A DNA stretch of 22,055 nucleotides from Candidatus Altiarchaeota archaeon. GTDB taxonomy: Archaea > Altiarchaeota > Altiarchaeia > IMC4 > SCGC-AAA252-I15. The notes under the pieces were generated by a model. It was given only the letters and a program-made list of their open reading frames with translations, was not told the DNA's origin and did no database searches. The translations under genes were made by a program, and so were the position numbers. Shown piece by piece: positions 1 through 22,055 of the stretch; the first letter of the stretch is position 1, and every line of letters starts with the position of its first letter. The stretch spans positions 1 to 22,055 of the forward strand of contig JAZDIN010000045.1 of the NCBI GenBank assembly GCA_043804895.1, read 5' to 3'.

Positions 1-2
1 TA

Positions 3-1325: not shown

Positions 1326-1402
1326 CCAACCACCGGAACATAGTATGGGCAACACTCATATAAAAAGACAAGGTAAATAAGAAAGCTTTTATATAACTTA
1401 CG

Positions 1403-2419: not shown

Positions 2420-2421
2420 TT

Positions 2422-3066: not shown

Positions 3067-3148
3067 AGTATCGCATAAGAAGCCAACAGATAAAAGACAG
3101 GCAGTAACCTAGATGAAACTGGAGATATTATGACCTAATCTATTTGAC

Positions 3149-4168: not shown

Positions 4169-4193
4169 GATAAAAAACAGGAAGGATACGCTA

Positions 4194-4886: not shown

Positions 4887-4916
4887 CTTAAATACCTATT
4901 AGATTAGTTTAATAAT

Positions 4917-5534
4917 ATGAGGTATGCGGCCTCCGTGTTCTGCGTCTGCATCCTATGCGGCTGCATTCAAGGGGGAGGCGACGCCAGCACAGCACCCAAA
5001 TTGGAGGGGGTGAGAGAGATGAAAGTTCTTTTTGTAGTGGCTCAGAAGGATTTCAGGGATGAAGAATATCTTACGCCGAAAGGAATCCTCGAGAGGGCCC
5101 ACGTCGCAGTCAGGACAGCAAGCCCTGACGGTGGAGTGTGCGAAGGCATGCTCGGGGCGAAAGTTAAGGCTGATATGAAAATCAGCGATGCAAACTACAG
5201 GGACTACGATGCCATCGTCGTGGTCGGAGGGGCTGGAAGCCCCAAATACCTCTGGGGGGACAGCAGACTCCAGAGCATTCTGAAGTCAGCCTATGATGAC
5301 GGTAAGGTCGTGGCAGGGATATGCCTCTCCGGCGCCGTACTGGCGAAGGCCGGAGTGCTTGAAGGCAAGAGGGCGACAGTGTTCGAGACCCCTGAGACTC
5401 TGAAGGCCCTCCGAGAGGGGGGAGCAGAGTATGTCGGTGGAGATTTGGTTGTTGATGGTAAGGTTATAACGGCCTCCGGCCCGCAGGCTGTTGACCGGTT
5501 CGGCCAGAACATATTAAATATGTTGGAACAGTAA
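4917..5534 (+). CDS. DJ-1/PfpI family protein (possible lipoprotein signal)
   Basis: DFRDEEY, YDAIVVVGGAG, AGICLS (nucleophile-elbow Cys), VVDGKVITASGP. N-terminal ILCGC. Alternative start at MKVLFVV. Confidence 0.92.
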   Translation: MRYAASVFCVCILCGCIQGGGDASTAPKLEGVREMKVLFVVAQKDFRDEEYLTPKGILERAHVAVRTASPDGGVCEGMLGAKVKADMKISDANYRDYDAIVVVGGAGSPKYLWGDSRLQSILKSAYDDGKVVAGICLSGAVLAKAGVLEGKRATVFETPETLKALREGGAEYVGGDLVVDGKVITASGPQAVDRFGQNILNMLEQ

Positions 5535-5571
5535 CTGTTTTTAAGTGCGAATATCTAATGTATGTCAGATT

Positions 5572-6156
5572 ATGGGCAAGATGGAAATTTTGTTGGTTGG
5601 AGTTTTGGTCGTCTTAGCGTTGCTCATAGGTATGCTGTTCGGAGGCTCAAGCATATGGTTCCTCAAGCCCACGGGGGAGGGGGGAGTCACAGAGAAGGTA
5701 GTCAATAAATACGTGTGCTCTGACGGGAGCGTAAAGGACAACCAGAACAAATGCCCGAAGACTGTGACAGGCGCGGACGGCAAGATGGAAGTGGTATGCC
5801 CACCATGCAAAACAAGCGACACCACATCACCCTTACGCAAATGTGACTGCGTGCAGTGCGAATCCCAATGCGGCGTAGCATACACGCCGACAACCACTAC
5901 ACTTTACATTCCACCGTGCACTGTCTGCACGTCTAACGCTGAGTGCGGTCAGCCAAGCTACAGCGAAATACGGTGCAAGAACGACGATACATACAAGATG
6001 TACCTTGAGCCGTACTGTGCTGACGAGGACGGTAAGAAATGCTGCAAGACAACAGAGACCGTTAAGGATTTAACCCCATGCCCGCAAGACCAGCGGTGCG
6101 TGAAAGGACAAGGCTGCGAGATAAGAGAACAGGCCCCTGAAGAGGAGACCGCATAG
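5572..6156 (+). CDS. Membrane-anchored cysteine-rich hypothetical protein
   Basis: N-terminal TM segment (ILLVGVLVVLALLIGMLFG), YVCSDGS motif, many Cys and a PTTTT linker. Start placed at ATG 5572. Confidence 0.8.
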   Translation: MGKMEILLVGVLVVLALLIGMLFGGSSIWFLKPTGEGGVTEKVVNKYVCSDGSVKDNQNKCPKTVTGADGKMEVVCPPCKTSDTTSPLRKCDCVQCESQCGVAYTPTTTTLYIPPCTVCTSNAECGQPSYSEIRCKNDDTYKMYLEPYCADEDGKKCCKTTETVKDLTPCPQDQRCVKGQGCEIREQAPEEETA

Positions 6157-6157
6157 G

Positions 6158-6985
6158 TTATTCTCTGTTTTTTTGAACAGTCAGTTTTCCGACCGTTAAC
6201 ATGAGTTCCTTGATTTCAACCTCATTACACCCTGTAGTCTCAGCAATCACCTTCGGCTCCATCCTGGCAAGGTCTCCTGCGGTTATTATGCCCTGCTGAG
6301 ATAGCTTAAACCGCGCATCATCGCTCAGGTGAGGCATGATGGTTATGGGGTAAAGGCACTTCGAATCTATAAGGTCCTGGAGGCTCTCCCCGTGCGGGTA
6401 ACCCCATGAGGTGACGCGGACGTTCTTGCACTTGCAGTACTTTAACGCATCCTCGGAGCATTTCGTGTTAGAGACAACCCACGCACTCTTGAAATTGTTC
6501 CCGCCATCAACCAAATCCTCAAACCGCGCGAACGTGTATAAAGCCTCCTTGAGGCCAGTGTAGTATCCAGGCTGGTTGTGGTACTTGCACTCCACCATGT
6601 ACCTGCCTGCCGAATCCTCGACTATCAGGTCAACCTCGTGGGTGACGCACATCCCGTTCAGCTTCTGGTTCAATTTCACACTGAACCCGTGGGCTTCAAG
6701 AACCTTCGCGATGTACTTCTCGAACGGGAATCCACTCGGCCCCAGGCGCATGATAGCGTCCTTGAGGCTGAATCGCACCGCAGAGTCGAAGTCATGCTTG
6801 TGCAAGAGCTGGAAGGCTATATGGTATATCTCACCGGTTGTTATGCCATCATACGCCTTAGTCTCAACCTCGGCGACTATCCCATCAGCCAGCTCCTTCT
6901 TGGCCCCGGACCGGATTAACGCGTAGGAGACCTTCCTAGCGTCGAAATCCTCGAACTCCCCTGAATGCTTCCTTACCTGGACCAT
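6158..6985 (-). CDS. ATP-cone domain + Mrr-like PD-(D/E)xK restriction endonuclease domain protein
   Basis: MVQVRKHSGEFEDFDARK...YDGITTGEI (ATP cone), LGPSGFPFEKYI, HEVDLIV...VECKYH. The true start is likely ATG 6985, because the longer ORF overlaps the DUF1003 gene. Confidence 0.88.
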   Translation of the reverse strand: MVQVRKHSGEFEDFDARKVSYALIRSGAKKELADGIVAEVETKAYDGITTGEIYHIAFQLLHKHDFDSAVRFSLKDAIMRLGPSGFPFEKYIAKVLEAHGFSVKLNQKLNGMCVTHEVDLIVEDSAGRYMVECKYHNQPGYYTGLKEALYTFARFEDLVDGGNNFKSAWVVSNTKCSEDALKYCKCKNVRVTSWGYPHGESLQDLIDSKCLYPITIMPHLSDDARFKLSQQGIITAGDLARMEPKVIAETTGCNEVEIKELMLTVGKLTVQKNRE

Positions 6986-7042
6986 CAGATTAAGAATAGG
7001 CTGGAGGGCATTTAAAAACCATGAACCTTGTAATAGATAACA

Positions 7043-7732
7043 GTGAAGAACAACAACGTCTGCTGCCTGTGCCATACGGAACATCCTCATAGTAAGCTGA
7101 CTGTCGGTGAAATCCTGAGGCCGAAGGTGTTTGACTTCATACACAAGCAGCATCCTGATTTCACGCACGAGAAGATGATTTGTACCGTCTGCCTGAACGA
7201 TAAGAGGTCTGAGTACATACTCAGCCTCCTCGGGGAAGACAACAGGAAGATATCCCACCTCGAGCATGAGGTGGCCAGGAGCATAAAGGAGAATGAGATG
7301 CTCTCCGCGAACATCATGGAGGAGTACGACGAGAAGCTGACATTGGGAGAGCGGCTGTCTGACAGGATAGCTACATTCGGAGGCAGCTGGACATTCATAA
7401 CAATATTCGCGCTCTTGATCTCCGCCTGGATTATCGTGAACGTCTACCTCATACAGAAGCCTGTCGACCCGTTCCCGTTCATACTCCTCAACCTCATGCT
7501 CTCATGCCTTGCGGCAGTCCAGGCCCCCGTCCTCATGATGAGCCAGAACAGGCAGGAGGCCCGAGACAGGATGAGGTCGAAACACGACTACCAGATTAAC
7601 CTCAAGGCCGAATTGGAGATACAGCACCTGAACGAGAAGCTCGACCTCCTCCTCAAGCACCAGTGGCAGAACCTCATCCAGATACAGCAGATACAGACGG
7701 ACATACTAGGGGAGATCAGGGAGAGGAGGTAA
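7043..7732 (+). CDS. DUF1003 membrane protein
   Basis: TLGERLSDRIATFGGSWTFI, DPFPFILLNLMLSCLAAVQAPVLMMSQNRQEARDR...DYQINLKAELEI. N-terminal CxxC...CxxC. Confidence 0.93.
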   Translation: MKNNNVCCLCHTEHPHSKLTVGEILRPKVFDFIHKQHPDFTHEKMICTVCLNDKRSEYILSLLGEDNRKISHLEHEVARSIKENEMLSANIMEEYDEKLTLGERLSDRIATFGGSWTFITIFALLISAWIIVNVYLIQKPVDPFPFILLNLMLSCLAAVQAPVLMMSQNRQEARDRMRSKHDYQINLKAELEIQHLNEKLDLLLKHQWQNLIQIQQIQTDILGEIRERR

Positions 7733-7740
7733 CACACCCA

Positions 7741-8775
7741 CTATTTTAATATAGTGAATGTACCGAATTTCTGGTTTTTGCGGTGGGAGTCAGAGCCCGC
7801 AGTCACTAGAAGCCCGTCTGTTCTAGATGCTTCAGCTATTTCGTCAGCTTCTCTCAGTGGGTGCGAGGGATGGTATGCTTCCACGCCGTCAACGCCGAGT
7901 TTTTTCAGTTTAAGAAGTAGGGTTGGCCATTCCTCCTTGCCGAGTTTTTCCCTCATGTGAGGGTGCGCTAGAATCACAAGGCCCCCTGCAGCATGTATGA
8001 CGTCGATGAACTCTACGATGTCGGGTTTGTTTACGCTGAAGTCGCCATACGTATTCCTCAACCATTTCACGATGTCATGCTGGATATCATGGCCGGTTTT
8101 GCGCCTCATCTTCCCATTGTGGTTTTTCATTTCGTACATGCTAATCCCGAGATAATCTTCTACACGGTTATCGTTTTCAGGGTGGTCCCAGATGTCCTTC
8201 GCAAGCACCTGGTAAATGTTCCTCTTAATCGAAAGGCTCTTAAAAAGGTCTGGCGAGAAGCAGAAATCTTCCTTCTCAAGCTGGCCCTTTATGTAGAGCG
8301 CCTTATCTATGTCCTTTTCTCTCCCGCTTGAATAGTCTTCGACAAACTTCCTTAACTGGGGATTCTCAGTATCCACTGCGACACCCAACATATGCATCTT
8401 GGTCATCTCAGTGATGCCCGTATGGTCGAAACGCACGGAAACCTCGATGCCAGCTATAATGTTAGCCTCATCCTTAGGCCCCAGCACCCTCTTCAGCTTT
8501 TCGAGCTCGTTGATAGCTAGGATAGCACCATATATGGTGTAGTGGTCTGTGACGATGACTTTGTATTTACCCTTGTAAACCTCAAGTGCCAGCTCCTCAG
8601 GGCTTCGTTCACCATCTGAAGCAGTCGTGTGAATCTGCCCGTCATACTTACCTCCTTTGAGGCGAATCCGTTGAGATTCAATGTGGGATATGGGGTCATC
8701 ACCGCTTTTTTCAATGACATCAATCACCCTTTCAGGAACGTAATCCAACCACTTACTTCGCCCCTTATAAGCCAT
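7741..8775 (-). CDS. PHP-domain metal-dependent phosphoesterase
   Basis: QIHTTASDG, TDH, GIEVS, HMLG, LAHP, GVEAYHP and GSDSH motifs. Start placed at MAYKG. Confidence 0.88.
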   Translation of the reverse strand: MAYKGRSKWLDYVPERVIDVIEKSGDDPISHIESQRIRLKGGKYDGQIHTTASDGERSPEELALEVYKGKYKVIVTDHYTIYGAILAINELEKLKRVLGPKDEANIIAGIEVSVRFDHTGITEMTKMHMLGVAVDTENPQLRKFVEDYSSGREKDIDKALYIKGQLEKEDFCFSPDLFKSLSIKRNIYQVLAKDIWDHPENDNRVEDYLGISMYEMKNHNGKMRRKTGHDIQHDIVKWLRNTYGDFSVNKPDIVEFIDVIHAAGGLVILAHPHMREKLGKEEWPTLLLKLKKLGVDGVEAYHPSHPLREADEIAEASRTDGLLVTAGSDSHRKNQKFGTFTILK

Positions 8776-8932
8776 ATATACATTAGTGTAGGACGAGTAA
8801 ATAACGTTATTCGCCGAATTCCTCAGCCCGAAACGTCTTCGCGGTCGGGTGTTGCGTCTATGCCAACGAACTCTAATTCTGGGAATCAACTGAGTCTATC
8901 ACTTTTAAAGGCTAGTATGTAATTTAGAACGG

Positions 8933-11827
8933 GTGGTTGGAGTGAAGAGGATAGTCGCCTTAATAGTTGTTTTTGTTTTGTTGTCTGGAGATGCTGCTGC
9001 GTTTTCGCTGAATGACTTGATTGATTACATACTGGGCCTCTTTGGTGGCGGCGGGAAGCAGCCTGACAATGTCGTGTGCAATCCCCCTTACATCAAAGTG
9101 GGTGGCAAATGCTGTTTAGATAGAAACGATAACAGGATATGCGACAAGGACGAGACCACGACTACACAGCCGAGGCAGACAACTCAGACGACGCAAACGA
9201 CTCAACCATCATCTGCTGTGACAACCACACTACAGTCAACTGTAACCACACTGAAGACGAACCTAAATTATGGTAGGGTCACGCTTACTGGCACGCTCGT
9301 GAACGACGTCGACCCAGTTTTGACCGCTGATAAAAGCATACTAGTGCAACCGACTGACGAGGCCAGCAAAGGCTCGTTCCTCGACGTAGTCGACATGGTC
9401 TCAGCAACGCAGCTTGGCGCGGTCATGCTCTCAGGCAGGCTCCTGACCGGAGTCGATGCAGTCATACTAGACAACGGGAAGACAGTCTTAATGCCCACAG
9501 CAGCCTCACCCCAAGCCTACCTGGACGTCATAGACCTGCCAACGAAGTCAAAGGTGAAAAGCCTTAAACTCGCCGCTGAACTGCAGGAGGACGTGGACGT
9601 GCAGGCGACGCCAAATCAGAAGAATGCGTTAATGGCAACAAGACTGGACGCCAGCAACAGCTTCTTAGAGGTGATTGACCTCACAACCAACGCGATAACG
9701 AAGAAGGTGGCGCTCCAAGGCGACCTCAAGGAGGGCGTCGACTGTCTCGTCACAAGAGACAGCGGCAAGGCTGTGTGCCCGACAAACAAGGTGGCTGTGG
9801 GAAGCAACCTACATTTCATAGACCTGGCGTCTGGGGTGCTCCTTAAGGTCTTGGGCGTCGACGGCGCCCTGGAGGGGGACGTGGACTTGAAGATGAGATC
9901 CAACGACGAGATAATACTCATGCCAACCAAGACCCCGGTGAGGGGGTTCCTCTCCATAATAGAGGCTAAGACGATGTCGATTGAGAAGAAGCTGGAGTTG
10001 AGCGGCACATTAAAGGAGAGCGTCGACACATACTTCCTGCCTGGCGAGAAGACCGCATACATTCCTGTCACAAACGGCAACCAAGGCTACGTCGACATCA
10101 TAGACGTAGTCGGCAAACAGGTGAAGTACAGCGTGAAACTGACAGGCGACCTCGTGAAGGGAGTCGACGGCAAACACCTACCCGACGGCTCAATGATTCT
10201 GATGCCAAACCAGAAGGGAAGCACCGCCTACCTGGACATCATAGACCCATCATCAGGAACGGTTGTGAAGTCAGTGCAACTCTCCGGAACGCTCCAGACT
10301 GCTGTTGACGTTCAGGTGACCGAGGACGGGAAGACAGCATACATGCCTGTGAGAAGACCAGGGAGGGGTAAAATCGACATCATAGACGTCGCCTCAGGCG
10401 CGCTAGTGAAGACAATAGACCTTAAGGCAGACCTCAAAGAGGATGTGGATGCGCTGTTGACAGTCAGTACAAAGAGGATTGCCATACCATCCAGCAAGAA
10501 CATCGCATACATCGACGTCATAACCAACACGCCAGCTAACTCACTCACAGCGATGACAACAGGGATGGGCGTCGGCTACGTCGACGTCATAGACACAGGC
10601 AGCAACAACGTGTTCGGGAGCATGAGCCTCCCAGGAGACATAGTAGTCGGAGTCGACGGCATATCAGGCGAACTCGCATCAACGACTCCAGACCCAGATG
10701 AAGACATGACCTTAAGCCTAGAACAACCCAGTGTAACCTCCACAACCACCACAATCCCGCAGCAAACCACCACAACACTATGGACGCCGCCACCTGACTC
10801 AACATCAACAACTATCCCTGACAACATACCCACGACCACGACGCTCAGGGTGACCACGACAACCCAGGGCGCAGTCATCACCCCAAGGTGCGGTGACGGA
10901 TACCTGTCCACACCTAACAGTCCCGGAGGCGGAAGCGAGGAATGCGACCTCAATGACAACCCCCAATACAGTTGGGCTGGAGGCAACGTGTACCCATGCC
11001 CAACCGGCCTTGAGTGCGTGAACTGCAAGTGCGTCGGATGCGGTGACGGCAGACTCCAGAAGGGCGAAGAATGCGACCCCAACAACAAGAAGAGCAAGGT
11101 GAACGGTCAACTCCTCTGGCAGGGCCAGGAGTACGCGTGCAGTGGCCAGTACGAGTACTGTGACTCGAGCACATGCACGTGTGAGTCATCGGTCCAGTGC
11201 ACCGGCGACCTGTATAACGCAGACAATTGCAACGGCGCATGCAACAGCCAGTGCAAGGAGTGCGCGCCATACCAGCAGACACCATGCTACTACTGCAAGA
11301 ACAGAGACTGCAGCCAGATAGACTCAGGCGGAGTCAGCCTCTACAACACTGCTTCCGAATGCAACCAACATTGCCCCCAAGGCACAGGCCAATGCATAAG
11401 CTGGAGCACATGCAGCAACTGCTACTATTGTAAGAACTACGTGTGCGGAAACGGCGCGGTGGAACCGGGAGAACAGTGTGAGAAGAACTCAGACTGCCCC
11501 AGCTACCACACATGCAGCCAATGCCAGTGCGTGACAGACTGTAACGGATACTGCGGAAGCGTAGGCCAAGGTTTCACCAACTACGGCGGCATCGGAAGCT
11601 CAGACCAGTGCTCCTCACAGACGAACCCGAACTCAGTACTCAAACAGTTAATAGACCAGATGAGCGAAACCTGCTACGCAGTCTGCGGGAAAGGCTACTT
11701 CATGGACGGCCTCAACGACAACTGCTGCTGCACCAAAACCAACAAAGTCCACTGCCTAGACTGCCCAGGCCAAAACCCAGACTGCAACACAGCACTAAAC
11801 CAATGCAAAGCAAGCATCCCGATGTGA
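8933..11827 (+). CDS. Large secreted/surface protein: signal peptide, Cys module, Thr-rich linkers, ~47-aa beta-propeller-like repeats, Cys-rich CGDG/EECD repeats
   Basis: Signal peptide ending DAAA-F; CNPPYIKVGGKCCLDRNDNRICD; nine L.G.L...VD...P......(L/I)D(V/I)ID repeats; PRCGDG...EECD, CGDGRLQKGEECD, CGNGAVEPGEQCE. Confidence 0.9.
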   Translation: MVGVKRIVALIVVFVLLSGDAAAFSLNDLIDYILGLFGGGGKQPDNVVCNPPYIKVGGKCCLDRNDNRICDKDETTTTQPRQTTQTTQTTQPSSAVTTTLQSTVTTLKTNLNYGRVTLTGTLVNDVDPVLTADKSILVQPTDEASKGSFLDVVDMVSATQLGAVMLSGRLLTGVDAVILDNGKTVLMPTAASPQAYLDVIDLPTKSKVKSLKLAAELQEDVDVQATPNQKNALMATRLDASNSFLEVIDLTTNAITKKVALQGDLKEGVDCLVTRDSGKAVCPTNKVAVGSNLHFIDLASGVLLKVLGVDGALEGDVDLKMRSNDEIILMPTKTPVRGFLSIIEAKTMSIEKKLELSGTLKESVDTYFLPGEKTAYIPVTNGNQGYVDIIDVVGKQVKYSVKLTGDLVKGVDGKHLPDGSMILMPNQKGSTAYLDIIDPSSGTVVKSVQLSGTLQTAVDVQVTEDGKTAYMPVRRPGRGKIDIIDVASGALVKTIDLKADLKEDVDALLTVSTKRIAIPSSKNIAYIDVITNTPANSLTAMTTGMGVGYVDVIDTGSNNVFGSMSLPGDIVVGVDGISGELASTTPDPDEDMTLSLEQPSVTSTTTTIPQQTTTTLWTPPPDSTSTTIPDNIPTTTTLRVTTTTQGAVITPRCGDGYLSTPNSPGGGSEECDLNDNPQYSWAGGNVYPCPTGLECVNCKCVGCGDGRLQKGEECDPNNKKSKVNGQLLWQGQEYACSGQYEYCDSSTCTCESSVQCTGDLYNADNCNGACNSQCKECAPYQQTPCYYCKNRDCSQIDSGGVSLYNTASECNQHCPQGTGQCISWSTCSNCYYCKNYVCGNGAVEPGEQCEKNSDCPSYHTCSQCQCVTDCNGYCGSVGQGFTNYGGIGSSDQCSSQTNPNSVLKQLIDQMSETCYAVCGKGYFMDGLNDNCCCTKTNKVHCLDCPGQNPDCNTALNQCKASIPM

Positions 11828-11844
11828 GGATTGGACAGAGGGAG

Positions 11845-11866
11845 TAACCCCCTTTTAGGGGGGTTA
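11845..11866. terminator. Hairpin between convergent genes, possible bidirectional terminator
   Basis: TAACCCCC-TTTTAG-GGGGGTTA lies between the stops of 8933-11827 (+) and 11864-13522 (-). Confidence 0.5.
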
Positions 11867-13522
11867 TTTCATCCTTTTTTTGTATTTTTCGTAAGCCTCA
11901 TTCGTCCTAGTGTTGTGTTTCTGCTGCAGTTCTCGTATCGCCTCAGGAAGCCGTTCCTGTTTTTCCATATCCTGTTTCTCCTTGCCTGCCTCAGTAAGCA
12001 TTCTGTTGAAGTCTTCCAAGCTCAGTTCGGTGATTTCCTTTTCAATCACCTTGTCGGACACGTAGAGGAATTCATATTCATATTTATCGAACACTTCCCA
12101 CATCTTGTCCAAGCCTTGTTCTTTTAGTTTACGTGTCATGGCCTCTAATTGCTTGTTTGCCTCAGATGAACTGCCGAGATTATGGCTAGTGGGTATGGGC
12201 TTCAATGTCACATTATCAGAACCAAACCCCGCTTCCAGAGCGGACGCTGTTACTAAAGTATCAATCATCCGAAAATCCTCGGATACTCCGGTACCGCGCT
12301 CCCCCTTCGGAAGCATCAGTTCCTCAGCCACGTAGCCGCCATAGGAGCAGGCTATTTCCTCTATGACCTGATTCAGACTAAGGTGTTGTCTCTCATCCCC
12401 CTCTGGGGCAGTATACCCTAACATTGTGACCCCTGTGAAGGTGATAATCTTTGGGGATGGAACATGTTCCAGGTATTTTTGCGCGAACGCATGACCGAGT
12501 TCGTGGTATACCGTCGTTATTCTATCGTATGGACGCTGCATGAACTTCGTTCCCTCGGCCTCGAATGTGCGTTGGAACGCTTTTTCTAGATGTTCTTTCT
12601 TTATGGTTATTGCCTCGTCTTTCTTGGGTGTTGTTGCCTCAGTAGTAGACTGTGTGGCTGATTCTTGAGTGGTGGACTGTCCGGCCGCATATCTTGCTAT
12701 GTTTTCTGCAGTGGAAAGCAGCTGTTTAATCTCGGCATATGACATATTGCTCGTCCGGCGAGCCAACTCATCGATGGTTATCCCTGTTGAGAGTAACTTC
12801 AGCCGGGGATTGGCTTCTTTTTCAGTAGGCTTGGTCGTTGCTAATGTGTGTAATATTTCCTTCCTCTCATCCTCGTCCGGGATTTTCATAGCAACCCAGT
12901 AGTCAGCCAGTGATGGGTATATCTCCTCTGGGTTGATTTCCGTGGTATCGGCTATGAAAACAGGCAGAATACTCTTGGATGTGGACAGTCTGCTGGTTTC
13001 ACGCAGGAGTTCGTTGAGGCTAATCCCGTCACCATCCAATTCTTTTATCCCGCGGATGACAAGCATCTTAGTGCCTCCTGTCTCGCTGAAAGCCTGTAGA
13101 AGGTCGTTGAGGCCGTCCTTGCCCCACTGTTTGTGGATGTCCCTAAGCTCTACCAATTCGACTTTAAGTTGTTTTGCGCCTACTTCGCCTGCGAAACAGT
13201 CGGATGCATGGCCTTTCCCTGTCGAATCCCACCCAAAGATTAGTACAGCCCGTGGTAGTTCGACGCCTTGATTTCTCCGCTCTTCATCCGAAAGGTTGAG
13301 TATTTGTATTATCTCGCCGAAGGCTGCTTTAGCCTGGTGCTGCCCTATCAGGTCGGTGAATTTAACAGTCGGAGACTCGATGCTGTCAATATGCGCCCTT
13401 ACAGTCTCATCCCACACAGTAGGCCTTTTCCCATAATACTTTAATACTTCCCCGCGCGGGCCGTAAAGTAGAGGTTCCTTAGTGTCCTCTGTTATTGGCT
13501 TTCTAGAGACGATTTCAGGCAT
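11864..13522 (-). CDS. FtsH-like protein: degenerate AAA module + M41 zinc peptidase, no TM segments
   Basis: TVKFTDLIGQHQAK, GVELPRAVLIFGWDSTGKG, IPDEDERKEIL, LARRTSNMSYAEI, YHELGHA, YGGYVAEE, TGVSEDF. Confidence 0.85.
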   Translation of the reverse strand: MPEIVSRKPITEDTKEPLLYGPRGEVLKYYGKRPTVWDETVRAHIDSIESPTVKFTDLIGQHQAKAAFGEIIQILNLSDEERRNQGVELPRAVLIFGWDSTGKGHASDCFAGEVGAKQLKVELVELRDIHKQWGKDGLNDLLQAFSETGGTKMLVIRGIKELDGDGISLNELLRETSRLSTSKSILPVFIADTTEINPEEIYPSLADYWVAMKIPDEDERKEILHTLATTKPTEKEANPRLKLLSTGITIDELARRTSNMSYAEIKQLLSTAENIARYAAGQSTTQESATQSTTEATTPKKDEAITIKKEHLEKAFQRTFEAEGTKFMQRPYDRITTVYHELGHAFAQKYLEHVPSPKIITFTGVTMLGYTAPEGDERQHLSLNQVIEEIACSYGGYVAEELMLPKGERGTGVSEDFRMIDTLVTASALEAGFGSDNVTLKPIPTSHNLGSSSEANKQLEAMTRKLKEQGLDKMWEVFDKYEYEFLYVSDKVIEKEITELSLEDFNRMLTEAGKEKQDMEKQERLPEAIRELQQKHNTRTNEAYEKYKKRMK

Positions 13523-13552
13523 GATAAGATACGGGAATTACTTGGATAAATA

Positions 13553-14170
13553 CTAGTCTATCGTGTGGCATTCTTGTTTGAGTTGGTTGAGTTGTGTTAC
13601 GTCGAGCACGTTCGGGTTTAGGGGTATGATGAGCTTCGACTCTGAGGTGCTTATCCTGTCTCTCACCTGCTGGACGAGTCTGAGGACTATCTGGAAGTTG
13701 TTGTTGCTCACCAAATACTCAAGGCCTTCTAGGAGTATGATGCTCCTACTGTGCGCCTCTATGAAGTTGTTGATGAACATACTCACCTCCTGCGGCCCGA
13801 AAATAGAGGGGATGTCTTCCCCGGCCCGGAGCTTGCTCAACCAACAGACTTCAGCATTAGCTAGTTCAGGATTACATCTCAAAGCCTTAGGATTCGCTCG
13901 GCTGATGTAAAGGCCTCGGGGCACGTCCTTCAGCTCGCGGGTGAAAATCCCCATGGCCTTCTCGCACTTCTCCTCGAGAATCAGGTACGCGGACCCAACA
14001 TCCAACCTGACATCACCATCCGCTTTAGAGGATGCTGAACCCACCCGGAGGGCCTCCTCCCTCCGCTTCAGAATCTCATCCTCCTTCCGGAGGGCCGTCT
14101 CCTCAGAGTTCAGCTTCGCAATCTCCCTCCTAAGCTCCTCAGCAAGAACCTCCCTATCCCCATCAAACAA
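13553..14170 (-). CDS. DUF835 domain protein with N-terminal coiled coil
   Basis: GLYISRANP, CWLSK, IILLEGLEYLVSNNNFQIVLRLVQQVRD, LIIPLNP. Confidence 0.88.
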   Translation of the reverse strand: MFDGDREVLAEELRREIAKLNSEETALRKEDEILKRREEALRVGSASSKADGDVRLDVGSAYLILEEKCEKAMGIFTRELKDVPRGLYISRANPKALRCNPELANAEVCWLSKLRAGEDIPSIFGPQEVSMFINNFIEAHSRSIILLEGLEYLVSNNNFQIVLRLVQQVRDRISTSESKLIIPLNPNVLDVTQLNQLKQECHTID

Positions 14171-14214
14171 GACAAAACACCAGTAATACTATTAACAGAC
14201 GCTAAAAAAAGGGA

Positions 14215-14296
14215 TTCACCAGCATCGAGTGTTAAATAGTTTGTTAAGTTTAAGCAGGGTATAATCTAAGGAGGAACTAGGGGGTTTTAACCTTGT
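14215..14296 (+). repeat. Degenerate copy R0 of the cassette-boundary repeat
   Basis: TTCACCAGCATCGAGTGTTAAATAGTTTGTTAAGTTTAAG matches R2 at 32 of 40 positions by my manual alignment. Tail GGAACTAGGGG(G)TTTTAACCTTGT is shared with R1. Confidence 0.8.
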
Positions 14297-15943: not shown

Positions 15944-16297
15944 ATGAAAGTCATTAACCGGGCCGGCCGCGGCAGATCCAGGGACGGCAGATCAGGCGAG
16001 TCTGAACGAGGCGGATTCGGGGGATTCGACAGGAGAGGACCGGAGAATAGGTTTTCAGGCGGGTTCCGTAGGGGGGAGCCTGGCGGAAGGTCTAGGCCTC
16101 AGATGCATGAAGCAGTCTGTTCCAAGTGCAAGCAACGGTGTGAAGTCCCTTTCAAACCTTCACCCACTAAACCCGTTTACTGCAGCGCATGTTTCAGGAA
16201 GGACGAGCCGGAAAAAAGGCCGTCAAATCTGTCTGATGAGCTTGGCAGAATCAACGACAAACTCGATAGGATAATGCGGGCGCTGGATCTGGGTTAA
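15944..16297 (+). CDS. CxxC-x17-CxxC domain protein with RG/RGG-rich N-terminus and short coiled C-terminus
   Basis: QMHEAVCSKCKQRCEVPFKPSPTKPVYCSACF; C-terminal ELGRINDKLDRIMRAL. Confidence 0.9.
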   Translation: MKVINRAGRGRSRDGRSGESERGGFGGFDRRGPENRFSGGFRRGEPGGRSRPQMHEAVCSKCKQRCEVPFKPSPTKPVYCSACFRKDEPEKRPSNLSDELGRINDKLDRIMRALDLG

Positions 16298-16592
16298 ACA
16301 ACCCACCCCCAAAGTAACAACAATTATGCGATTTATAAACGCAGACGTCCTACTAAAGGACTATATCGAGCATTGTTTAGGTCAGGTGGCACTTAAATCT
16401 TGTTCTTTAAAAAAAAAATAATGGGGTAATTAAGCAAATTCGGGTATTAAACGCTCAAACGCACTGTAAACGTCGGAGATTGCCATAACGGTCCGATTAT
16501 TCATGTTGAATGCGAAACTGACGTGATAAACACTCACGGCTACTTTAAGCCGATATTAAATGAGAAATTAAAAAATTAAGGAGGTGAATTAA

Positions 16593-16763
16593 ATGCCAGG
16601 AAGAGATTTCGGAGGAGGAGGTTTTGACAGGGGCCCAAGGGAGATGACCGATGCCGTATGCAGCGAATGCGGCGCATCATGCCAGGTTCCGTTCAAGCCA
16701 ACCGAAGGAAAACCAGTATACTGCAGGGAATGCTACGCGAAAAGAAGACCAAAACGCTTCTAA
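16593..16763 (+). CDS. Second CxxC-x17-CxxC domain protein (56 aa, not in the ORF track)
   Basis: Manual translation: MPGRDFGGGGFDRGPREMTDAVCSECGASCQVPFKPTEGKPVYCRECYAKRRPKRF*. Strong SD AAGGAGGTGA at 16578-16587. Confidence 0.93.
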   Translation: MPGRDFGGGGFDRGPREMTDAVCSECGASCQVPFKPTEGKPVYCRECYAKRRPKRF

Positions 16764-16882
16764 AGCTTGACAGTAGAGTGGGAATACCGTACAATAACTA
16801 ATTCTTTATTTTATAAACCCCCTCAGCCAACGGCACACACCCGACACATAATTTTCCGGAGATACCCCACACACACGATAAA

Positions 16883-16963
16883 TTCGCCCCGATCGGGACT
16901 AGAACAGTTTGTTCAGTTTAGGTGGGGGAAACTCTGAATAGGAACTAGGGGTTTTAACCTTGT
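16883..16963 (+). repeat. Cassette-boundary repeat R1
   Basis: TTCGCCCCGATCGGGACTAGAACAGTTTGTTCAGTTTAGGTGGGGGAAAC followed by tail GGAACTAGGGGTTTTAACCTTGT. Confidence 0.95.
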
Positions 16964-17051
16964 GTGTGTGCGTTTTTTGGCGGGGGGGGACTTTTACTAG
17001 TTCCTCTGTTAACTCACCAGCCATACCCTGTTTTTACCATTTGTTGTCAAT

Positions 17052-17891
17052 TTACTTAGCTTTGGTAAATATTGCAGCGGTGAAGTCAATCTGGTCCAAG
17101 ATTGGTTCATTACCAACCATAAACTCGCCAGTTTCTCCACTCACACAATCTGTCTTTTGTACCGCTCTCCCTAGGAAAGTATATGAAGGACAGTAAGTTT
17201 GGCTAGCTGTAAGAGAACCATCCCCTACTTCAACGCAAAGACCGACATAGTTTTGCCAAGATGGTTGCATCCCTCCTACCTCATCTATACATCCTTGTGC
17301 GCTTCTCACATACAACCATTCACTCCCTCCAGTAGATTGACTTTCACTTTGGCAATGTTCACCACTCATTTCCCATGCATTATATAGCACCTTGAAGTAG
17401 TTGGCACAAGCAGTACAAACTCCTGCTACTGGGTCACAAACGGCAACTTGTGGTTTGTTTCCTCCTTTGTTGCCGGCATTACCTGCCCCACAACCGGTAG
17501 AGTCAACACATTCTACAGCACCAACACACGCCTTTGCCGACGGGCTCCAGCCACAGGCGTTTACAAGATAGTCCTGTATGTTCGGGTCGTATCTCCAATT
17601 ACAATCACCGTTCTGATAGTTGAGGTTTAACCCACTAGCCCCACAGGTCTGACCTAGACCTATCGGGCATTGAATCACTTCCCGACTACCTGCAATTTTA
17701 CTAACATCTGCTGAATTAGGACTATCTGAGCCCTTATAGAAGAAGTGGCACATATGTTTTGCAGGGCCCACGAGTATACCCTTTCCGCCTACTGCGGCAG
17801 TCGACAACGTGTCCGGCCACTTGGCCCCGAACCAAACAACCACGCCAATAGCAACTAACACTATTACCGCCCCAGTCAAGAGATTAGCCAT
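17052..17891 (-). CDS. Membrane-anchored cysteine-rich hypothetical protein
   Basis: MANLLTGAVIVLVAIGVVVWFG TM anchor, then many Cys and Gly residues. SD GGAGGT upstream of ATG 17891. Confidence 0.82.
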   Translation of the reverse strand: MANLLTGAVIVLVAIGVVVWFGAKWPDTLSTAAVGGKGILVGPAKHMCHFFYKGSDSPNSADVSKIAGSREVIQCPIGLGQTCGASGLNLNYQNGDCNWRYDPNIQDYLVNACGWSPSAKACVGAVECVDSTGCGAGNAGNKGGNKPQVAVCDPVAGVCTACANYFKVLYNAWEMSGEHCQSESQSTGGSEWLYVRSAQGCIDEVGGMQPSWQNYVGLCVEVGDGSLTASQTYCPSYTFLGRAVQKTDCVSGETGEFMVGNEPILDQIDFTAAIFTKAK

Positions 17892-18015
17892 CTTTTGAAC
17901 CTCCAATGTATAGTATATATATCATCGGATTAGTTAAAAGACCTGCGATTGTCTCATCTACCACCATAAATCTGGGGTAGAGTATAATCTTTCCTTTTTT
18001 CGGTACCCTGATAAA

Positions 18016-18065
18016 TTCGCCCCGATCGGGTTTTAAACAGTTTGTTCAGTTTAAGTGTGGAAAAC
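18016..18065 (+). repeat. Cassette-boundary repeat R2
   Basis: TTCGCCCCGATCGGGTTTTAAACAGTTTGTTCAGTTTAAGTGTGGAAAAC. The upstream TTCCTTTTTTCGG.AC.CTGATAA is shared with R4. Confidence 0.93.
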
Positions 18066-18097
18066 TTTCTATATGACTACACTTCCAAGGTATGTAG

Positions 18098-19048
18098 TCA
18101 TATGTCTTTAAGGTTTTTTCCTAGCTTATCATAGGATCTTAACATCAGGTCAATGCTCGGCCTTATGTTGCTCTCTTTTTGATATGCATGGAGGGAGGAA
18201 TAGTACTCTCTGTCGGACTTAACTTCAATATTCACTGGAGGTAGTCCGTGTTTCAACAGTATGTTGTTCATTAGTAGTCTTCCGACCCTGCCGTTTCCGT
18301 CCTCAAACGGGTGGATGCTCTCGAATTGGTTGTGGACGACTGCTGCAAGGACAATGGGGTGATACCTGTTTTTGCTCTTTTTGTACCACTCAACAAGCTC
18401 TTTCAGAAGACTCAACACCTTATTCTGCGGTGCGCCCCTGTGGACCACCTCTCCAAGCCTGTTTTTCACAACTACTTCCACTCCTGGGGGACGCATCCTG
18501 CCTGCGAACCTCTTGGAGTTCTTGAAGACAATCCTGTGCAAATCCGTCATCAATTCGATTGACAGGTGTTCCTTCGTTTCCCTAACCAACTTGACCGCGT
18601 CAGATACTCCATACGTCTCAGCAATCTCATCCTTGGCTTTGTCAGGCCACTTATCATTCTCTAGTATACCTTTAACTTCGGCTAAATTCACAGTCGAACC
18701 TTCTATTGCGTTCGTATCATATGCGAAAAGCTCCGTGAACCTAACCCACTGCTCTTCAGACAGATGGCTTATTTTGATGTCGTGCTTTCCTACCAAGGAC
18801 TTGATAGATGCCATCTCCTGAGGGGACAGAACAGTCTTCAGGGGGTCGCGGATGTTCTTGTACGACTGCGCCTGCCACATCAGCTCCTTCTCAGCAGCAG
18901 GCCGCAACGATGCAACCTCCTTCTCGGTGAGGTTGACTCCGAGGTACTTCCTCAGCCTCTTAACTTTGCCTTCGTGACGGAAAGAATGAGCCGCATAATA
19001 GAACTTCTTCCCGCCGCGCTTCTGAACCTCAATGTGCATCAATAACAC
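18098..19048 (-). CDS. Fic family protein
   Basis: Canonical Fic motif HPFEDGNGRVGR. DTNAIEG resembles the (S/T)xxxE(G/N) inhibitory motif. N-terminal KKFYYAAHSFR...RKYLG domain. Start may be ATG 19039. Confidence 0.95.
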   Translation of the reverse strand: MLLMHIEVQKRGGKKFYYAAHSFRHEGKVKRLRKYLGVNLTEKEVASLRPAAEKELMWQAQSYKNIRDPLKTVLSPQEMASIKSLVGKHDIKISHLSEEQWVRFTELFAYDTNAIEGSTVNLAEVKGILENDKWPDKAKDEIAETYGVSDAVKLVRETKEHLSIELMTDLHRIVFKNSKRFAGRMRPPGVEVVVKNRLGEVVHRGAPQNKVLSLLKELVEWYKKSKNRYHPIVLAAVVHNQFESIHPFEDGNGRVGRLLMNNILLKHGLPPVNIEVKSDREYYSSLHAYQKESNIRPSIDLMLRSYDKLGKNLKDI

Positions 19049-19092
19049 TATATGACTACAAGTTTAAATATGATTACAGGTATATGACTACA
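19048..19092 (-). promoter_or_regulatory. Fic promoter region: TATA-like box bracketed by ATATGA(C/T)TACA direct repeats
   Basis: Copies at 19050-19060, 19068-19078 and 19082-19092, with TTTAAATA between the first two. Confidence 0.6.
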
Positions 19093-19181
19093 GATAGAAC
19101 AGAGTGTTCAATCCCCTACGGGTGTTCGGACAACATAAAGAATAACGCCCATGGATACATTATAACTGCGAATTGGCTAGC

Positions 19182-19265
19182 TTCGCCCGCATCGGGACTA
19201 GAACAAAATGTTCGGTTTAAAGGGGCGTACTTTTAGGAGGGGGGGAATAAGGGTTTTAACCCCTG
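19182..19265 (+). repeat. Cassette-boundary repeat R3
   Basis: TTCGCCCGCATCGGGACTAGAACAAAATGTTCGGTTTAAAGGGGCGTAC followed by tail GGGTTTTAACCC. Confidence 0.95.
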
Positions 19266-19284
19266 TTCATATACTGTAGATGAG

Positions 19285-20400
19285 ATGGTGGTTTGGTTGC
19301 GTATACTAGGTGGTTTATTTTTACTGTTTTTGGTGTGCGGGTGTATAACTTCACAAATAGAGGAGACAACGACAATAAGAACACCTGAACCCGCAGTTTC
19401 CTCCACTACCCTCACCCCCACAACTTCAACTGTTTGCTACATTATCCGCAAGGGAGAGTCGATTAAAGAAGTACCGCCAAATGCCTGTTATATTATCGCA
19501 GATGAAGAGGAGCAGAAGAGTTTATCCTACTGTGATCATTTTGAAGGGGGGGAAAGGGATGAGTGCTATACGGAAATAGCAAGGCTGAATCAGGATATAA
19601 GATTATGTAACAAAATAGAGGTGAAAAAATCAAAATACGTTTGCAAGTATGGTCTGACACTAATCCTTTTAAGGGACAGGAATATAACTGTTGAAAAGGC
19701 ACTAGAGTTTTGTGAAGAAATGGGTGAAGCAGATATAAGAGATTTTCCTGAAAGCCTGTGTATTAAAAGTGTTGCTGTTGTTTCTGATCAGCCCCTCCTT
19801 AACCAAGATGCCGGCAAACAAATAACTCAAGAGGCAGACCTTAAAGAAGTAAGGAGCTGTTGGACTGAATCGTTTGAGTTTGAAGACAAAAAAATTGACC
19901 TTGTTGAAATTTCTTATGGCCCCCCACAGGACTGTTTTTCTGGATGTTTTCACAGTTCATTTGGGGGGATAATCGAAAATGGCGAATCTTTTCAGATTTG
20001 CAATTTCAATTACAATGCTGAGGGGAATAATTTACAGCTTTACCCTAAACCGCAAATTTTAGCCGGCCTTGTTGACTCTATGCAGATTTATTCAAACGTT
20101 TCTTTTGGAGGTGGATATAACTATTACAGAACTTTTTCTGACTGTTTTATAAGATATATGCACGAAATCAATTTGACTGAAGACTTTTGCTCAAACCTTT
20201 CAGATGAAGGGGAAAAACAAACATGCTTTGATTTGCTGATAGTTGACCAGAAAAAGTATGAGGATTGTGACAAGATTTATTTACCAAGATTAAGAGACCA
20301 TTGTTTTCTTCTTTCTGCTTTCAAATCAAAGGAAATCAATAAATGTGGGGGAATTTCTGATCTTGGAACCAGAGAATATTGCATTAACACGTTAGACTAA
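19285..20400 (+). CDS. Putative lipoprotein with Thr-rich linker and Cys-paired helical repeats
   Basis: LFLLFLVCGC signal; repeated C..(I/L/F).....(R/K)D.C(Y/F/I) units. Visibly more AT-rich than the left half of the window. Confidence 0.85.
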   Translation: MVVWLRILGGLFLLFLVCGCITSQIEETTTIRTPEPAVSSTTLTPTTSTVCYIIRKGESIKEVPPNACYIIADEEEQKSLSYCDHFEGGERDECYTEIARLNQDIRLCNKIEVKKSKYVCKYGLTLILLRDRNITVEKALEFCEEMGEADIRDFPESLCIKSVAVVSDQPLLNQDAGKQITQEADLKEVRSCWTESFEFEDKKIDLVEISYGPPQDCFSGCFHSSFGGIIENGESFQICNFNYNAEGNNLQLYPKPQILAGLVDSMQIYSNVSFGGGYNYYRTFSDCFIRYMHEINLTEDFCSNLSDEGEKQTCFDLLIVDQKKYEDCDKIYLPRLRDHCFLLSAFKSKEINKCGGISDLGTREYCINTLD

Positions 20401-20574
20401 TATAAACGTTCAAATAACAGTGAAAAGCTCTCAAACGGATTCTATAATAAAAAATTAGTCTAGTAGTCCTAAACTGGTATCCCGTCGTCTTATTGGGGTA
20501 TATCGGTCTCTCCATCGGATATGGAGTGCTGCATCCTTCTATAAAATCATTCCTTTTTTCGGAACTCTGATAAC

Positions 20575-20623
20575 TTCGCCCGCATCGGGACTAGAACAAT
20601 CTGTTCGGTTATGGCGGGGATAC
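20575..20623 (+). repeat. Cassette-boundary repeat R4
   Basis: TTCGCCCGCATCGGGACTAGAACAATCTGTTCGGTTATGGCGGGGATAC. Confidence 0.95.
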
Positions 20624-20689
20624 TCATTAGGAGTATTTATATACTTAGGTATCCCCATGTATACTTAGGAGTACTATCTGAGGGATTAC

Positions 20690-20932
20690 ATGGACACAAC
20701 AACGATAAAGCTCTATGGTGAGACGAAATTACAGTTGAACCAGTTTAGGGAATACAAAAACGAAAGCTATGACGAAATAGTAAAGAAACTAGTTTATATA
20801 GCCAGGACCGTGGGAAAAGACCCTAAACTAAGCAGTCAAACAGTCCGTGACATAGAGGCAGCCAGAGAAAGACTACGGAATGGAGAATTCTACAGTGAAC
20901 AGCAAGTTGCCAAGATGCTGGGCTTAAAGTGA
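20690..20932 (+). CDS. Putative antitoxin (ribbon-helix-helix-like N-terminus)
   Basis: MDTTTIKL...L..F....NESYDEIVKKL; C-terminal GEFYSEQQVAKMLGL. Overlaps the RelE-type gene by 4 nt (GTGA). Confidence 0.85.
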   Translation: MDTTTIKLYGETKLQLNQFREYKNESYDEIVKKLVYIARTVGKDPKLSSQTVRDIEAARERLRNGEFYSEQQVAKMLGLK

Positions 20933-21189
20933 AACAGGAGTACACGGTAAAGTTTGACACAGATGCGACAGAGGAGTTAGTGAAGCTGCCGCACGACATA
21001 TCTCGCAGAGTATACAAGAAGATAATTGAATCCAAACAAGACCCATACCATTATTGGGTGAGGCTAGAAGGCAGAACAGACTACAGGATACGAGTCGGAG
21101 ACTATCGGGCAATAGCAGACATCATCGAAAACGAAAAACTAATCTATGTGACCAAAATCGGACACAGAAAAACAATCTACCAAGAATAA
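20929..21189 (+). CDS. RelE/ParE family type II toxin
   Basis: YTVKFDTDATEELVKLP, RLEGRTDYRIRVGDYRAI, VTKIGHRKTIY. Confidence 0.93.
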   Translation: MKQEYTVKFDTDATEELVKLPHDISRRVYKKIIESKQDPYHYWVRLEGRTDYRIRVGDYRAIADIIENEKLIYVTKIGHRKTIYQE

Positions 21190-21307
21190 CCATTACTCCT
21201 CAATATCTTACCCCTAGAATCAGAACACAGTGTTCGAATCCCAGAGGGGGTTTTAACAGCACAAGCTATAGCCGCTATAAACCCCATATACTCTCTAATC
21301 AGCTGAT

Positions 21308-21356
21308 ATCGCCCGCATCGGGACTAGAACAAAATGTTCGGTTTAGAGGGGGATAC
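21308..21356 (+). repeat. Cassette-boundary repeat R5
   Basis: ATCGCCCGCATCGGGACTAGAACAAAATGTTCGGTTTAGAGGGGGATAC. Confidence 0.95.
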
Positions 21357-21468
21357 TTCCATAGCCTATCTGGGATACGTATGGATGGCTAGGGGTCCAC
21401 TGCCAAACACTGCATGTAATCCCCGAATTCTTATATCCTTATACACCCAATATATTGATTGGATATTG

Positions 21469-21762
21469 ATGAAAAGCATCACTCAGATTAGGAGGATACT
21501 CCAAAAGCGGAAGGAAGGTTTACATAAGGAATATGGAGTTAGTGAGATTGGGGTCTTCGGGTCTTTTGTGAGGGGGCAGCAGAATAGGCGCAGCGATGTC
21601 GACATACTCGTGGATTTCACCAAAACTCCTGACCTGTTCGAACTTATCAGGTTGGAGAACAGCCTAAGACGCTCGCTCGGCAGAAAAGTAGACCTTGTGA
21701 GAAAAGGCGGAATTAGACCTGAACTTCGGAGGAACATACTGTCCGAGGCAGTGATTATATGA
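21469..21762 (+). CDS. Minimal nucleotidyltransferase (MNT/MntA-type antitoxin)
   Basis: YGVSEIGVFGSFVRGQQNRRSDVDILVDF...LGRKVDLV. Real start likely ATG 21469 (MKSITQ), since the longer ORF runs through repeat R5. Confidence 0.93.
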   Translation: MKSITQIRRILQKRKEGLHKEYGVSEIGVFGSFVRGQQNRRSDVDILVDFTKTPDLFELIRLENSLRRSLGRKVDLVRKGGIRPELRRNILSEAVII

Positions 21763-22055
21763 GGAGAAAGCACAGCCTATATGTGAAAGACATCCTGGAC
21801 GCCATCACTCAGACAGAAAAGTTCGTTGACAGGATGAGTTACCCAGAATTCCAAGCAGATGATAGGACATCCAGCGCCGTTGTGAGAAAACTGGAGATAA
21901 TCGGCGAGGCAGCCAAGAACATACCCCTAGAAATCAGGCAGAAAAACAAGACCATACCCTGGACGGACATGGCCAAGACAAGGGATAAAATAATCCACGG
22001 ATACTTTGGGGTTGACTACGACGTAATCTGGAAAACGGTCAAAGAAAGGCTGCCA
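21759..22055 (+). CDS. HEPN/DUF86 (HepT-like) RNase toxin, 3'-truncated by the window
   Basis: Manual translation: MRRKHSLYVKDILDAI...LEIIGEAAKNIP...IPWTDMAKTRDKIIHGYFGVDYDVIW, with an Rx4HxY motif. ATGA overlap with the MNT stop. Confidence 0.93.
   Translation, partial: MRRKHSLYVKDILDAITQTEKFVDRMSYPEFQADDRTSSAVVRKLEIIGEAAKNIPLEIRQKNKTIPWTDMAKTRDKIIHGYFGVDYDVIWKTVKERLP

Follow-up and report, generated by a model that had tools for sequence, protein, structure and literature searches.

The closest described counterparts of the locus analysed here are the cis-mobilizable elements (CIMEs) and the products of tandem accretion known from ICESt1-type islands of streptococci. According to the available part of the source (PMC5704250), a CIME has attachment (att) sites on both sides and no integration genes; such integrase-less segments are stacked site-specifically at a duplicated 3' end of the target gene, and a related integrase can mobilise them in trans. 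A comparable arrangement was found in an assembly of Candidatus Altiarchaeota archaeon (G000; 1.58 Mb, 71 contigs, 88.7% complete), in the stretch of 22,055 nt that makes up its entire contig C45 and is called the window below: co-oriented units of ~57 nt separate small gene modules. We believe these units to be tRNA-derived att sites, which probably bound stacked, integrase-less, CIME-like cassettes moved in trans and resemble an integron in layout only. Compared with CIMEs as presented in that part of the source, the C45 array has single-gene segments of 0.7–1.4 kb in rows of five or more, combines two tRNA cores, belongs to an archaeal host and has no evident conjugative helper, and arrays with visible ends do not lie next to an intact target tRNA gene.

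A likeness may also be drawn to the tycheposon islands of Prochlorococcus (10.1101/2020.12.28.424599, available in part), where tyrosine-recombinase elements target few tRNA genes and repeated integration pushes older elements into an island with partial tRNAs, degenerated remnants and accessory cargo. Tycheposons differ in carrying their own integrase and often replication genes, and a full-length tRNA stands at the beginning of their islands; the accessible portion of that work makes no mention of regular single-gene units sharing a conserved arm of ~35 nt. The regular single-gene size, the conserved arm, the two tRNA cores, the lack of an adjacent tRNA where flanks are visible and the archaeal host therefore distinguish our locus from CIMEs and tycheposons alike. 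With integrons and clusters of attC sites lacking integron integrases (CALINs), including archaeal ones, the array shares a short site for each mostly one-gene cassette, many toxin-antitoxin (TA) genes and the absence of a nearby integrase (PMC9668308, seen in part). In contrast to them, it has no attC motifs, no support for structure-based conservation and no IntI; its modules lie in both orientations and have their own control regions, and its site is composed of a tRNA 3' end and an arm. Altiarchaeota occur once in the text of that paper that was accessible, as the root of a tree. Our full-text literature search, in which papers were judged by title and start of abstract, returned none on integrase or tRNA arrays of Altiarchaeota. 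Archaeal elements residing in tRNA genes, with integrases of SSV or pTN3 type, use tRNA 3' ends as att cores, and the DNA captured in this way becomes fixed in the chromosome. She et al. reportedly wrote in 2001 of "gene capture in archaeal chromosomes".

The initial annotation, made from the window alone, described five co-oriented copies of a repeat with one functional module after each, and both statements hold. The repeat search placed the copies at positions 16877, 18010, 19176, 20569 and 21302 in a 67-nt frame, that is, at the described spacings of 1133, 1166, 1393 and 733 nt, and R1, a sequence-only covariance model built from 20 units, scored all five on the plus strand with E values from 2e-19 to 4e-15. 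Open reading frames (ORFs) and family searches agreed with the module types as listed, and the start of the MNT gene was corrected to 21469 (Table 1). A 35-nt IUPAC pattern with ≤3 mismatches matched 4 of the 5 copies and none of 100 dinucleotide shuffles. Mean column identity in the unit alignment is 70%, and the C45 array is the longest when compared with the two on contig C4. A degenerate sixth unit, 2668 nt upstream of the first copy by the repeat search (copy at 14209, 64% identity; nhmmer E 3.6e-4), perhaps stands at the distal, oldest border of the array. Partial copies also occur in inverted orientation. One of them closes the TA module on the right, ~60 nt short of unit 5, and the weaker one opens a long left extension of unit 3, termed class B. 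This extended form constitutes a repeat family of its own (19096–19232 matches 21222–21358, 71% over 137 nt), with inverted partial copies ~85 nt apart.

Table 1. Units, partial copies and modules of the array in the window (positions in the 22,055-nt stretch)
Feature	Position	Strand	Basis
Degenerate sixth unit: arm kept, tRNA-derived core decayed	14224..14268	+	R1 E 3.6e-4, model positions 14-58
Unit 1: tRNA-Asp type core, then conserved arm	16880..16936	+	R1 E 2.2e-19
Module 1: 284-aa Cys-rich protein, N-terminal hydrophobic helix	17052..17906	-	ORF, translation
Unit 2: tRNA-Asp type core, T-loop-derived part diverged	18013..18068	+	R1 E 4.2e-15, alignment
Module 2: Fic-domain protein, 316 aa	18098..19048	-	PF02661, 70.4 bits
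Weak inverted partial copy, right end of Fic module	19097..19118	-	R1 E 0.12
Unit 3: tRNA-Arg type core	19179..19235	+	R1 E 3.9e-15; 15-nt exact tRNA-Arg(GCG) match
Module 3: 371-aa Cys-rich protein, lipobox-like N-terminus, 38% GC	19285..20400	+	ORF, translation
Unit 4: tRNA-Arg type core	20572..20627	+	R1 E 6.3e-16
Module 4: DUF7557 antitoxin-like gene and ParE/RelE-type toxin gene	20690..20932 and 20929..21189	+	PF24434, PF05016
Inverted partial copy (arm and part of core)	21205..21244	-	R1 E 1.3e-4, model positions 15-54
Unit 5: tRNA-Arg type core	21307..21359	+	R1 E 5.1e-16
Module 5: MntA-type nucleotidyltransferase antitoxin and HepT-type HEPN toxin	21469..21762 and 21759..22055	+	PF01909, PF01934

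What escaped the initial annotation is the identity of the site. Judging by its sequence, a unit is a tRNA 3' end in reverse complement followed by an arm, in other words, an att core of the classical kind predicted for tyrosine integrases that target tRNA genes. In the left third of each unit one recognises the T-loop, the 3' strand of the T-stem, the acceptor strand and the discriminator, and this core does originate from tRNA genes. In units 3–5 it is identical over 15 nt to the end of the tRNA-Arg(GCG) gene of the same genome (G000:C52:34220-34442); the probability of meeting such a match by chance in 1.58 Mb is ~0.003 by an arithmetic estimate. This gene contains a 151-nt intron, was found by ARAGORN only with introns allowed and is missed by Rfam. 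Units 1 and 2 have a CG/GC swap relative to units 3–5 and match the end of tRNA-Asp(GTC) of relatives. The 22-nt end of tRNA-Asp (≤2 mismatches) is present in 28 of 49 genomes of the order; ARAGORN calls this tRNA in 13 of the 15 loci fetched, the remaining two being a truncated one and one that is not a tRNA (G014:C7), and R1 matches limited to model positions 3–27 fall on tRNA-Asp genes. A third variant was found in a unit of the relative G012, where 22 of 22 nt coincide with the end of tRNA-Glu(TTC), represented by tRNA-Glu of G016. Since tRNAs Asp-GTC, Arg-GCG and Glu-TTC have an identical T-arm, one integrase family could use all three. A conserved arm absent from tRNAs makes up the other ~35 nt; it comprises a GAACA-N3-TGTTC palindrome overlapping the T-loop remnant, then GTTTAGG, a G run and AAC. 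A reading of the core as a tRNA 5' end in forward orientation was rejected, with 8 nt of match against 15–22 nt for the 3' end in reverse complement.

Scans of the window by Rfam (gathering threshold) and ARAGORN gave no match at all, while in the loci of C52, C29 and C4 Rfam at E 0.1 gave two ordinary tRNAs only and missed the intron-bearing tRNA-Arg. The latter is located 128 nt from the end of C52, and the C45 array leaves its contig on the side where a tRNA would be expected, which makes a join of the two contigs possible. The initial annotation advised looking for a recombinase or a tRNA beyond position 22055, but the window is the whole contig and the record has no sequence past this point. 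A search for a link of C45 to another contig through the missing C-terminus of HepT found none. Many tRNA genes of G000 have introns of 100–150 nt: plain ARAGORN reports 10 tRNAs, Rfam 17 and intron-allowing ARAGORN 26, among them one odd call, "tRNA-Stop(tta)".

Based on these data one can suppose that the ~57-nt unit represents one side of the att site of a tRNA-targeting tyrosine integrase, with a core copied from the last ~15–22 nt of a tRNA gene and joined to a conserved arm on the element side (P). The modules would then be small integrase-less elements, cargo flanked by att sequences as in CIMEs, which might have become stacked through repeated att × att recombination, with strand exchange presumably taking place within the shared part of the T-arm. 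A Xer-like integrase, found in relatives and not in this assembly, could presumably excise, insert or reshuffle the modules in trans. Units are indeed present on both sides of modules 1–4, and no recombinase was found either in the window, as the initial annotation had supposed, or elsewhere in the assembly. Direct repeats of a tRNA gene 3' end that also bound an integrase-encoding element were observed on G014:C7 and not in G000.

In G014 a segment of 10.7 kb with a Xer-like tyrosine integrase (PF00589, 67.7 bits) lies between two co-oriented units. After the left unit, which is partial (R1 E 1.6e-4), come a P' arm and then the integrase gene; the right unit is full (R1 E 2.6e-9; E 1.5e-6 with a hidden Markov model (HMM) of the arm only) and aligns with unit 1 of C45. 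The other genes of the segment, named from their N-termini by reading, are a Vsr-like endonuclease, a DNA methyltransferase and a PIN/AbrB pair. PF00589 is present in 10 of the 20 relatives from the same family (f1), and one group of integrases of ~350–400 aa is 81–91% identical across G016, G006 and G014; in G016 integrases of this group follow directly after tRNA-Asp and tRNA-Glu. It is this group that probably supplies the enzyme. In G012 the tRNA-Glu core is flanked directly by the unit arm on one side and by P' sequence on the other, P' being the sequence that follows tRNA-Asp and tRNA-Glu beside the G016 integrases. Because this junction has both arms, the complete site is likely to be P-core-P', of which the C45 units would be the P-core side. 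By eye, both inverted partial copies (21205 and 19097) resemble P' arms shifted by ~60 nt.

Units are restricted to accessory clusters. All 11 R1 matches in G000 fall into four clusters on three contigs and are co-oriented within each: five on C45, three on C4 at 40.4–43.6 kb, two on C4 at 14.4–16.3 kb and one on C29, 175 nt from the contig start; C4 has in addition a core-only copy at 12,958. Among 61 genomes of the phylum, 17 have an R1 match at E ≤0.001, and in 9 of these 17 it is the tRNA-Asp gene only. Matches extending past model position 45 were registered in 8 of the 21 genomes of family f1 (G000, G001, G003, G004, G005, G012, G014 and G017) and in none of the 40 phylum genomes outside it. 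A 27-nt IUPAC pattern gave no match in a wider collection of genome contigs, where a 16-mer yielded mostly chance matches in bacteria. The arrays of relatives have cargo of their own: two Fic proteins, a Fic-like protein and an AAA_14/DUF4143 ATPase on G014:C7 (350.6–353 kb); an RsgA-like GTPase, secreted proteins and PIN on G003:C4; and a Cys-rich protein, a ParE-like protein and a Fic-like protein on G001:C73, where the array reaches the contig start.

Such a distribution bears on the view that the unit is a non-recombinational repeat, either similar to miniature inverted-repeat transposable elements (MITEs) or repetitive extragenic palindromes (REPs), or else a shared promoter, operator or terminator spread between accessory genes. 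It could account for the TATA-box-like TTTAGG/TTTAAG of the arm, for the imperfect hairpin that can be drawn, for the class-B inverted partial copies, whose spacing is reminiscent of terminal inverted repeats, and for the motif AGGGGTTTTAAC recurring between units and plus-strand ORFs. Nevertheless, MITEs or REPs should form many dispersed copies in either orientation, whereas the units of G000 are few, clustered and not scattered, in line with the prediction of the initial annotation that they behave as recombination sites and not as generic repeats or operators. Adjacent genes face both ways, which gives no constant relation to a promoter or terminator, and the identity with the 3' ends of three tRNAs as well as the unit-bounded integrase element would be left unexplained. 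We therefore hold this view to be improbable.

Folding of the unit was estimated as well. In the drawable hairpin 79.7% of cells are paired, compared with 29–57% for slid registers. However, covariation was at the level of shuffled alignments (200 of 500 reached the observed score) and RNAalifold predicted no structure, which gives a structural repeat no support and leaves a folded, attC-like mode of action unsupported. It is well known that attC sites conserve structure and not sequence, are bounded by RYYYAAC (R'') and GTTRRRY (R') and measure 57–141 nt. A regular-expression scan of 16500–22055 on either strand found no such pair 40–130 nt apart, as the initial annotation had noticed in calling the repeat non-attC; the nearest look-alikes within the unit, CTAGAAC and GTTCRGT, are separated by only 5 nt and break the consensus. 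One module per site, TA-rich cargo and no nearby integrase are what CALINs in archaeal metagenome-assembled genomes (MAGs) show in the available part of PMC9668308, and might suggest a true integron or CALIN with atypical attC sites. Yet in the unit it is the sequence that is conserved, its core is a tRNA end, the cassettes are neither co-oriented nor promoterless (the TA module keeps an operator-like repeat that is conserved outside the array in G004), and IntI is absent: the integrase family of relatives reaches 48.7 bits with TIGR02249, whose cut-off is 265 bits, and G000 has no PF00589 match. A true integron is thus hardly credible. The word "integron-like" used in the initial annotation remains appropriate for the layout, with a site per module, TA-rich cargo and a module found in varied neighbourhoods, and does not extend to the machinery, where IntI, attC cores, promoterless co-oriented cassettes and covariation support for a folded site are all wanting.

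The module in varied neighbourhoods is that of Fic. Its copy on C45 (18013–19095) matches C4 41678–40598 with 79.7% identity over 1084 nt (blastn); the homology begins at the unit and stops where the inverted copy begins, and the copy on G003:C2 matches 18011–19099 of the window. The unit-to-unit length is also similar (1166 nt on C45, ~1195 on C4 and ~1160 in G014), and the neighbours differ at each location, so that the comparison with related MAGs suggested in the initial annotation did reveal a cassette recurring with the same boundaries. Protein identity is 82% to G014, which belongs to another genus, 80% to the C4 paralogue and 75% to G003; for genes left of the array, the response regulator and the zinc-finger protein, identity to the same-genus G001 is 65% and 63%. 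Homologues of the latter two are arranged in a different order on G001:C73, and no clean comparison of orthologous loci was available. Orthologues of an FtsH-like neighbour, taken as a synteny anchor, were found in 0 of 20 relatives at E 1e-40, a threshold or an anchor that was badly chosen. The two proteins of the TA module (DUF7557 and ParE/RelE) are 89% and 72% identical to those of G004:C90; DNA homology starts at ~20633, ~5 nt to the right of unit 4, and G004 itself lacks a unit at this place.

The recurring ends of the Fic module are important for another explanation, according to which the units are passive scars, dead attR junctions of successive full-size integrative elements that lost the integrase and most genes, with no movement of single cassettes. 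Decay of integrated elements into CIMEs is a documented route (PMC5704250, available part), G000 has no integrase, and degenerate or core-only copies do occur at array edges (14224, C4:43570, C4:12958, L034:9624 and L035:11041). On the other hand, conservation of the five units (E 1e-15 to 1e-19) far exceeds that of their surroundings, and the modules consist uniformly of one gene or one TA pair. Moreover, the Fic module has the same ends and length beside different neighbours on two contigs of G000 and in two other genomes at 75–82% protein identity, and independent decay is unlikely to trim elements to identical boundaries. The scenario of scars seems unlikely; on the preferred reading the cassettes would move singly, presumably to this day.

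Several observations weigh against stacked cassettes moved in trans. G000 gave no match to PF00589 (even at E 10), PF16795 or PF00239, and tblastn with integrases of relatives detected neither a gene nor fragments of one in G000; activity in G000 is therefore only putative. The same result separates the array from capture of the SSV type, which works by splitting the integrase gene and should leave fragments. No intact tRNA is situated beside arrays with both sides visible (the C4 arrays and loci L030–L036), which is unlike classical accretion at a tRNA gene. Similarity of the unit arm to the P' arms of the integrase loci is not significant; the arm-only HMM gave E 0.25 at tRNA-Glu (100 kb) and, among integrase loci, was significant only for the right junction of G014. 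G014 alone combines the integrase family with full units; G016 and G006 have the integrase and no R1 match. Most C45 junctions have no P' arm directly beside the core. Finally, a second tRNA-Glu core on G016:C3, 9.7 kb downstream, has no unit-like arm, and a second core-P' junction lies 7 kb downstream on G016:C4, from which it follows that the G016 elements do not use the P arm of the unit. As for an empty site of the G014 element in G000, none was clean: on G000:C55 the outer flanks are ~625 nt apart, and both a unit and the inner flanking genes are missing.

A bolder version can be considered only tentatively and appears doubtful. It would be a free-standing cassette platform of this Altiarchaeota family, not anchored to a tRNA gene, in which single-gene modules, each with a tRNA-mimicking att site made of core and P arm, are excised, captured and reshuffled in trans by one conserved Xer-like integrase accepting any core with the shared Asp/Arg/Glu T-arm, that is, an archaeal functional analogue of integrons that arose independently from tRNA-integrating elements. 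The dedicated "gene-capture platform" of the initial annotation goes beyond the data, which are explained equally well by att × att stacking of integrase-less mini-elements. If cassettes do move singly by means of a trans-acting integrase, integron-style shuffling of genes would have a second, independent route, based on the most common integration system, the att sites of tRNA genes, and an integrase of the G014/G016 type together with the 57-nt site would make a testable pair. The host belongs to a deep-branching, uncultured archaeal phylum, for which no gene-exchange mechanism was described in the literature searched. The cargo (Fic, ParE/RelE, MntA-HepT, PIN and Cys-rich surface proteins) suggests strain-variable genes of addiction, defence and cell surface. 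Even if read conservatively, the units are of use for marking flexible genome islands in these MAGs.

Strain-variable arrays would also explain why assemblies are interrupted here. In four cases a contig terminates at or close to a unit or the target tRNA (the end of C45, the start of C29, the end of C52 and the start of G001:C73), which fits population heterogeneity or repeat collapse there. A different kind of break was noticed for small Xer-like recombinase genes of relatives (~270–284 aa), absent from G000 and G001: the best five, loci L037–L041 (G008:C56, G013:C76, G018:C109, G015:C212 and G003:C17), start 430–650 nt from the contig start, which suggests a recurrent assembly break just upstream of the gene.

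The G+C content of modules 1–5 is 45.9, 46.1, 38.5, 42.4 and 46.7%, compared with 51.8% for positions 1–14200, and two modules lie on the minus strand and three on the plus strand, in agreement with the differences in orientation and composition mentioned by the initial annotation. The proteins of modules 1 and 3 have no match in Pfam or NCBIfam. Module 5 also matches NF047752 and NF047751, both below cut-off; its HepT toxin is short by ~15 residues owing to the contig end, as its 114-aa homologue in G014 indicates.

Short motifs accompany the units and modules. AGGGGTTTTAAC recurs ~25 nt to the right of units and 20–60 nt before plus-strand ORFs (window ~14280, 15120, 16950, 19250 and 21247; G000:C29 ~240), and also precedes the response-regulator gene outside the array; it could represent an element of ribosome binding or transcription start. 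The DUF7557/ParE pair is preceded by two copies of a direct repeat, TATACTTAGG (20633–20668); this repeat is kept in G004:C90 without a unit and looks like the operator of the antitoxin. The 3' end of the Fic gene is overlapped by an inverted repeat (TATATGACTACA, ~10 nt, TGTAGTCATATG; 18070–18104), and three direct copies of TATGACTAC are located upstream of its start (19050–19095). In G000, G003 and G014 the Fic-associated motif is found also near Fic paralogues and beside certain other units (G000:C4 near 41600, 14350 and 43540; L031; L035), and it may serve the Fic module as an operator. The interval from unit 1 to the 3' end of the Cys-rich gene contains a run of ~8 G inside an inverted repeat (GGAACTAG ... 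CTAGTTCC; 16975–16990), and the G001 unit is followed by a run of ~12 G; such homopolymer tracts easily vary in length.

To the left of the array, a 964-aa ORF (8933–11827) without a Pfam match contains several internal repeats of ~141 nt and its multiples. A 56-aa treble-clef zinc-finger gene (PF23477; 16593–16763) adjoins the array and has a paralogue with 80% DNA identity at G000:C24:30201-30388, and a second zinc-finger member of 117 aa is encoded at 15944–16297.

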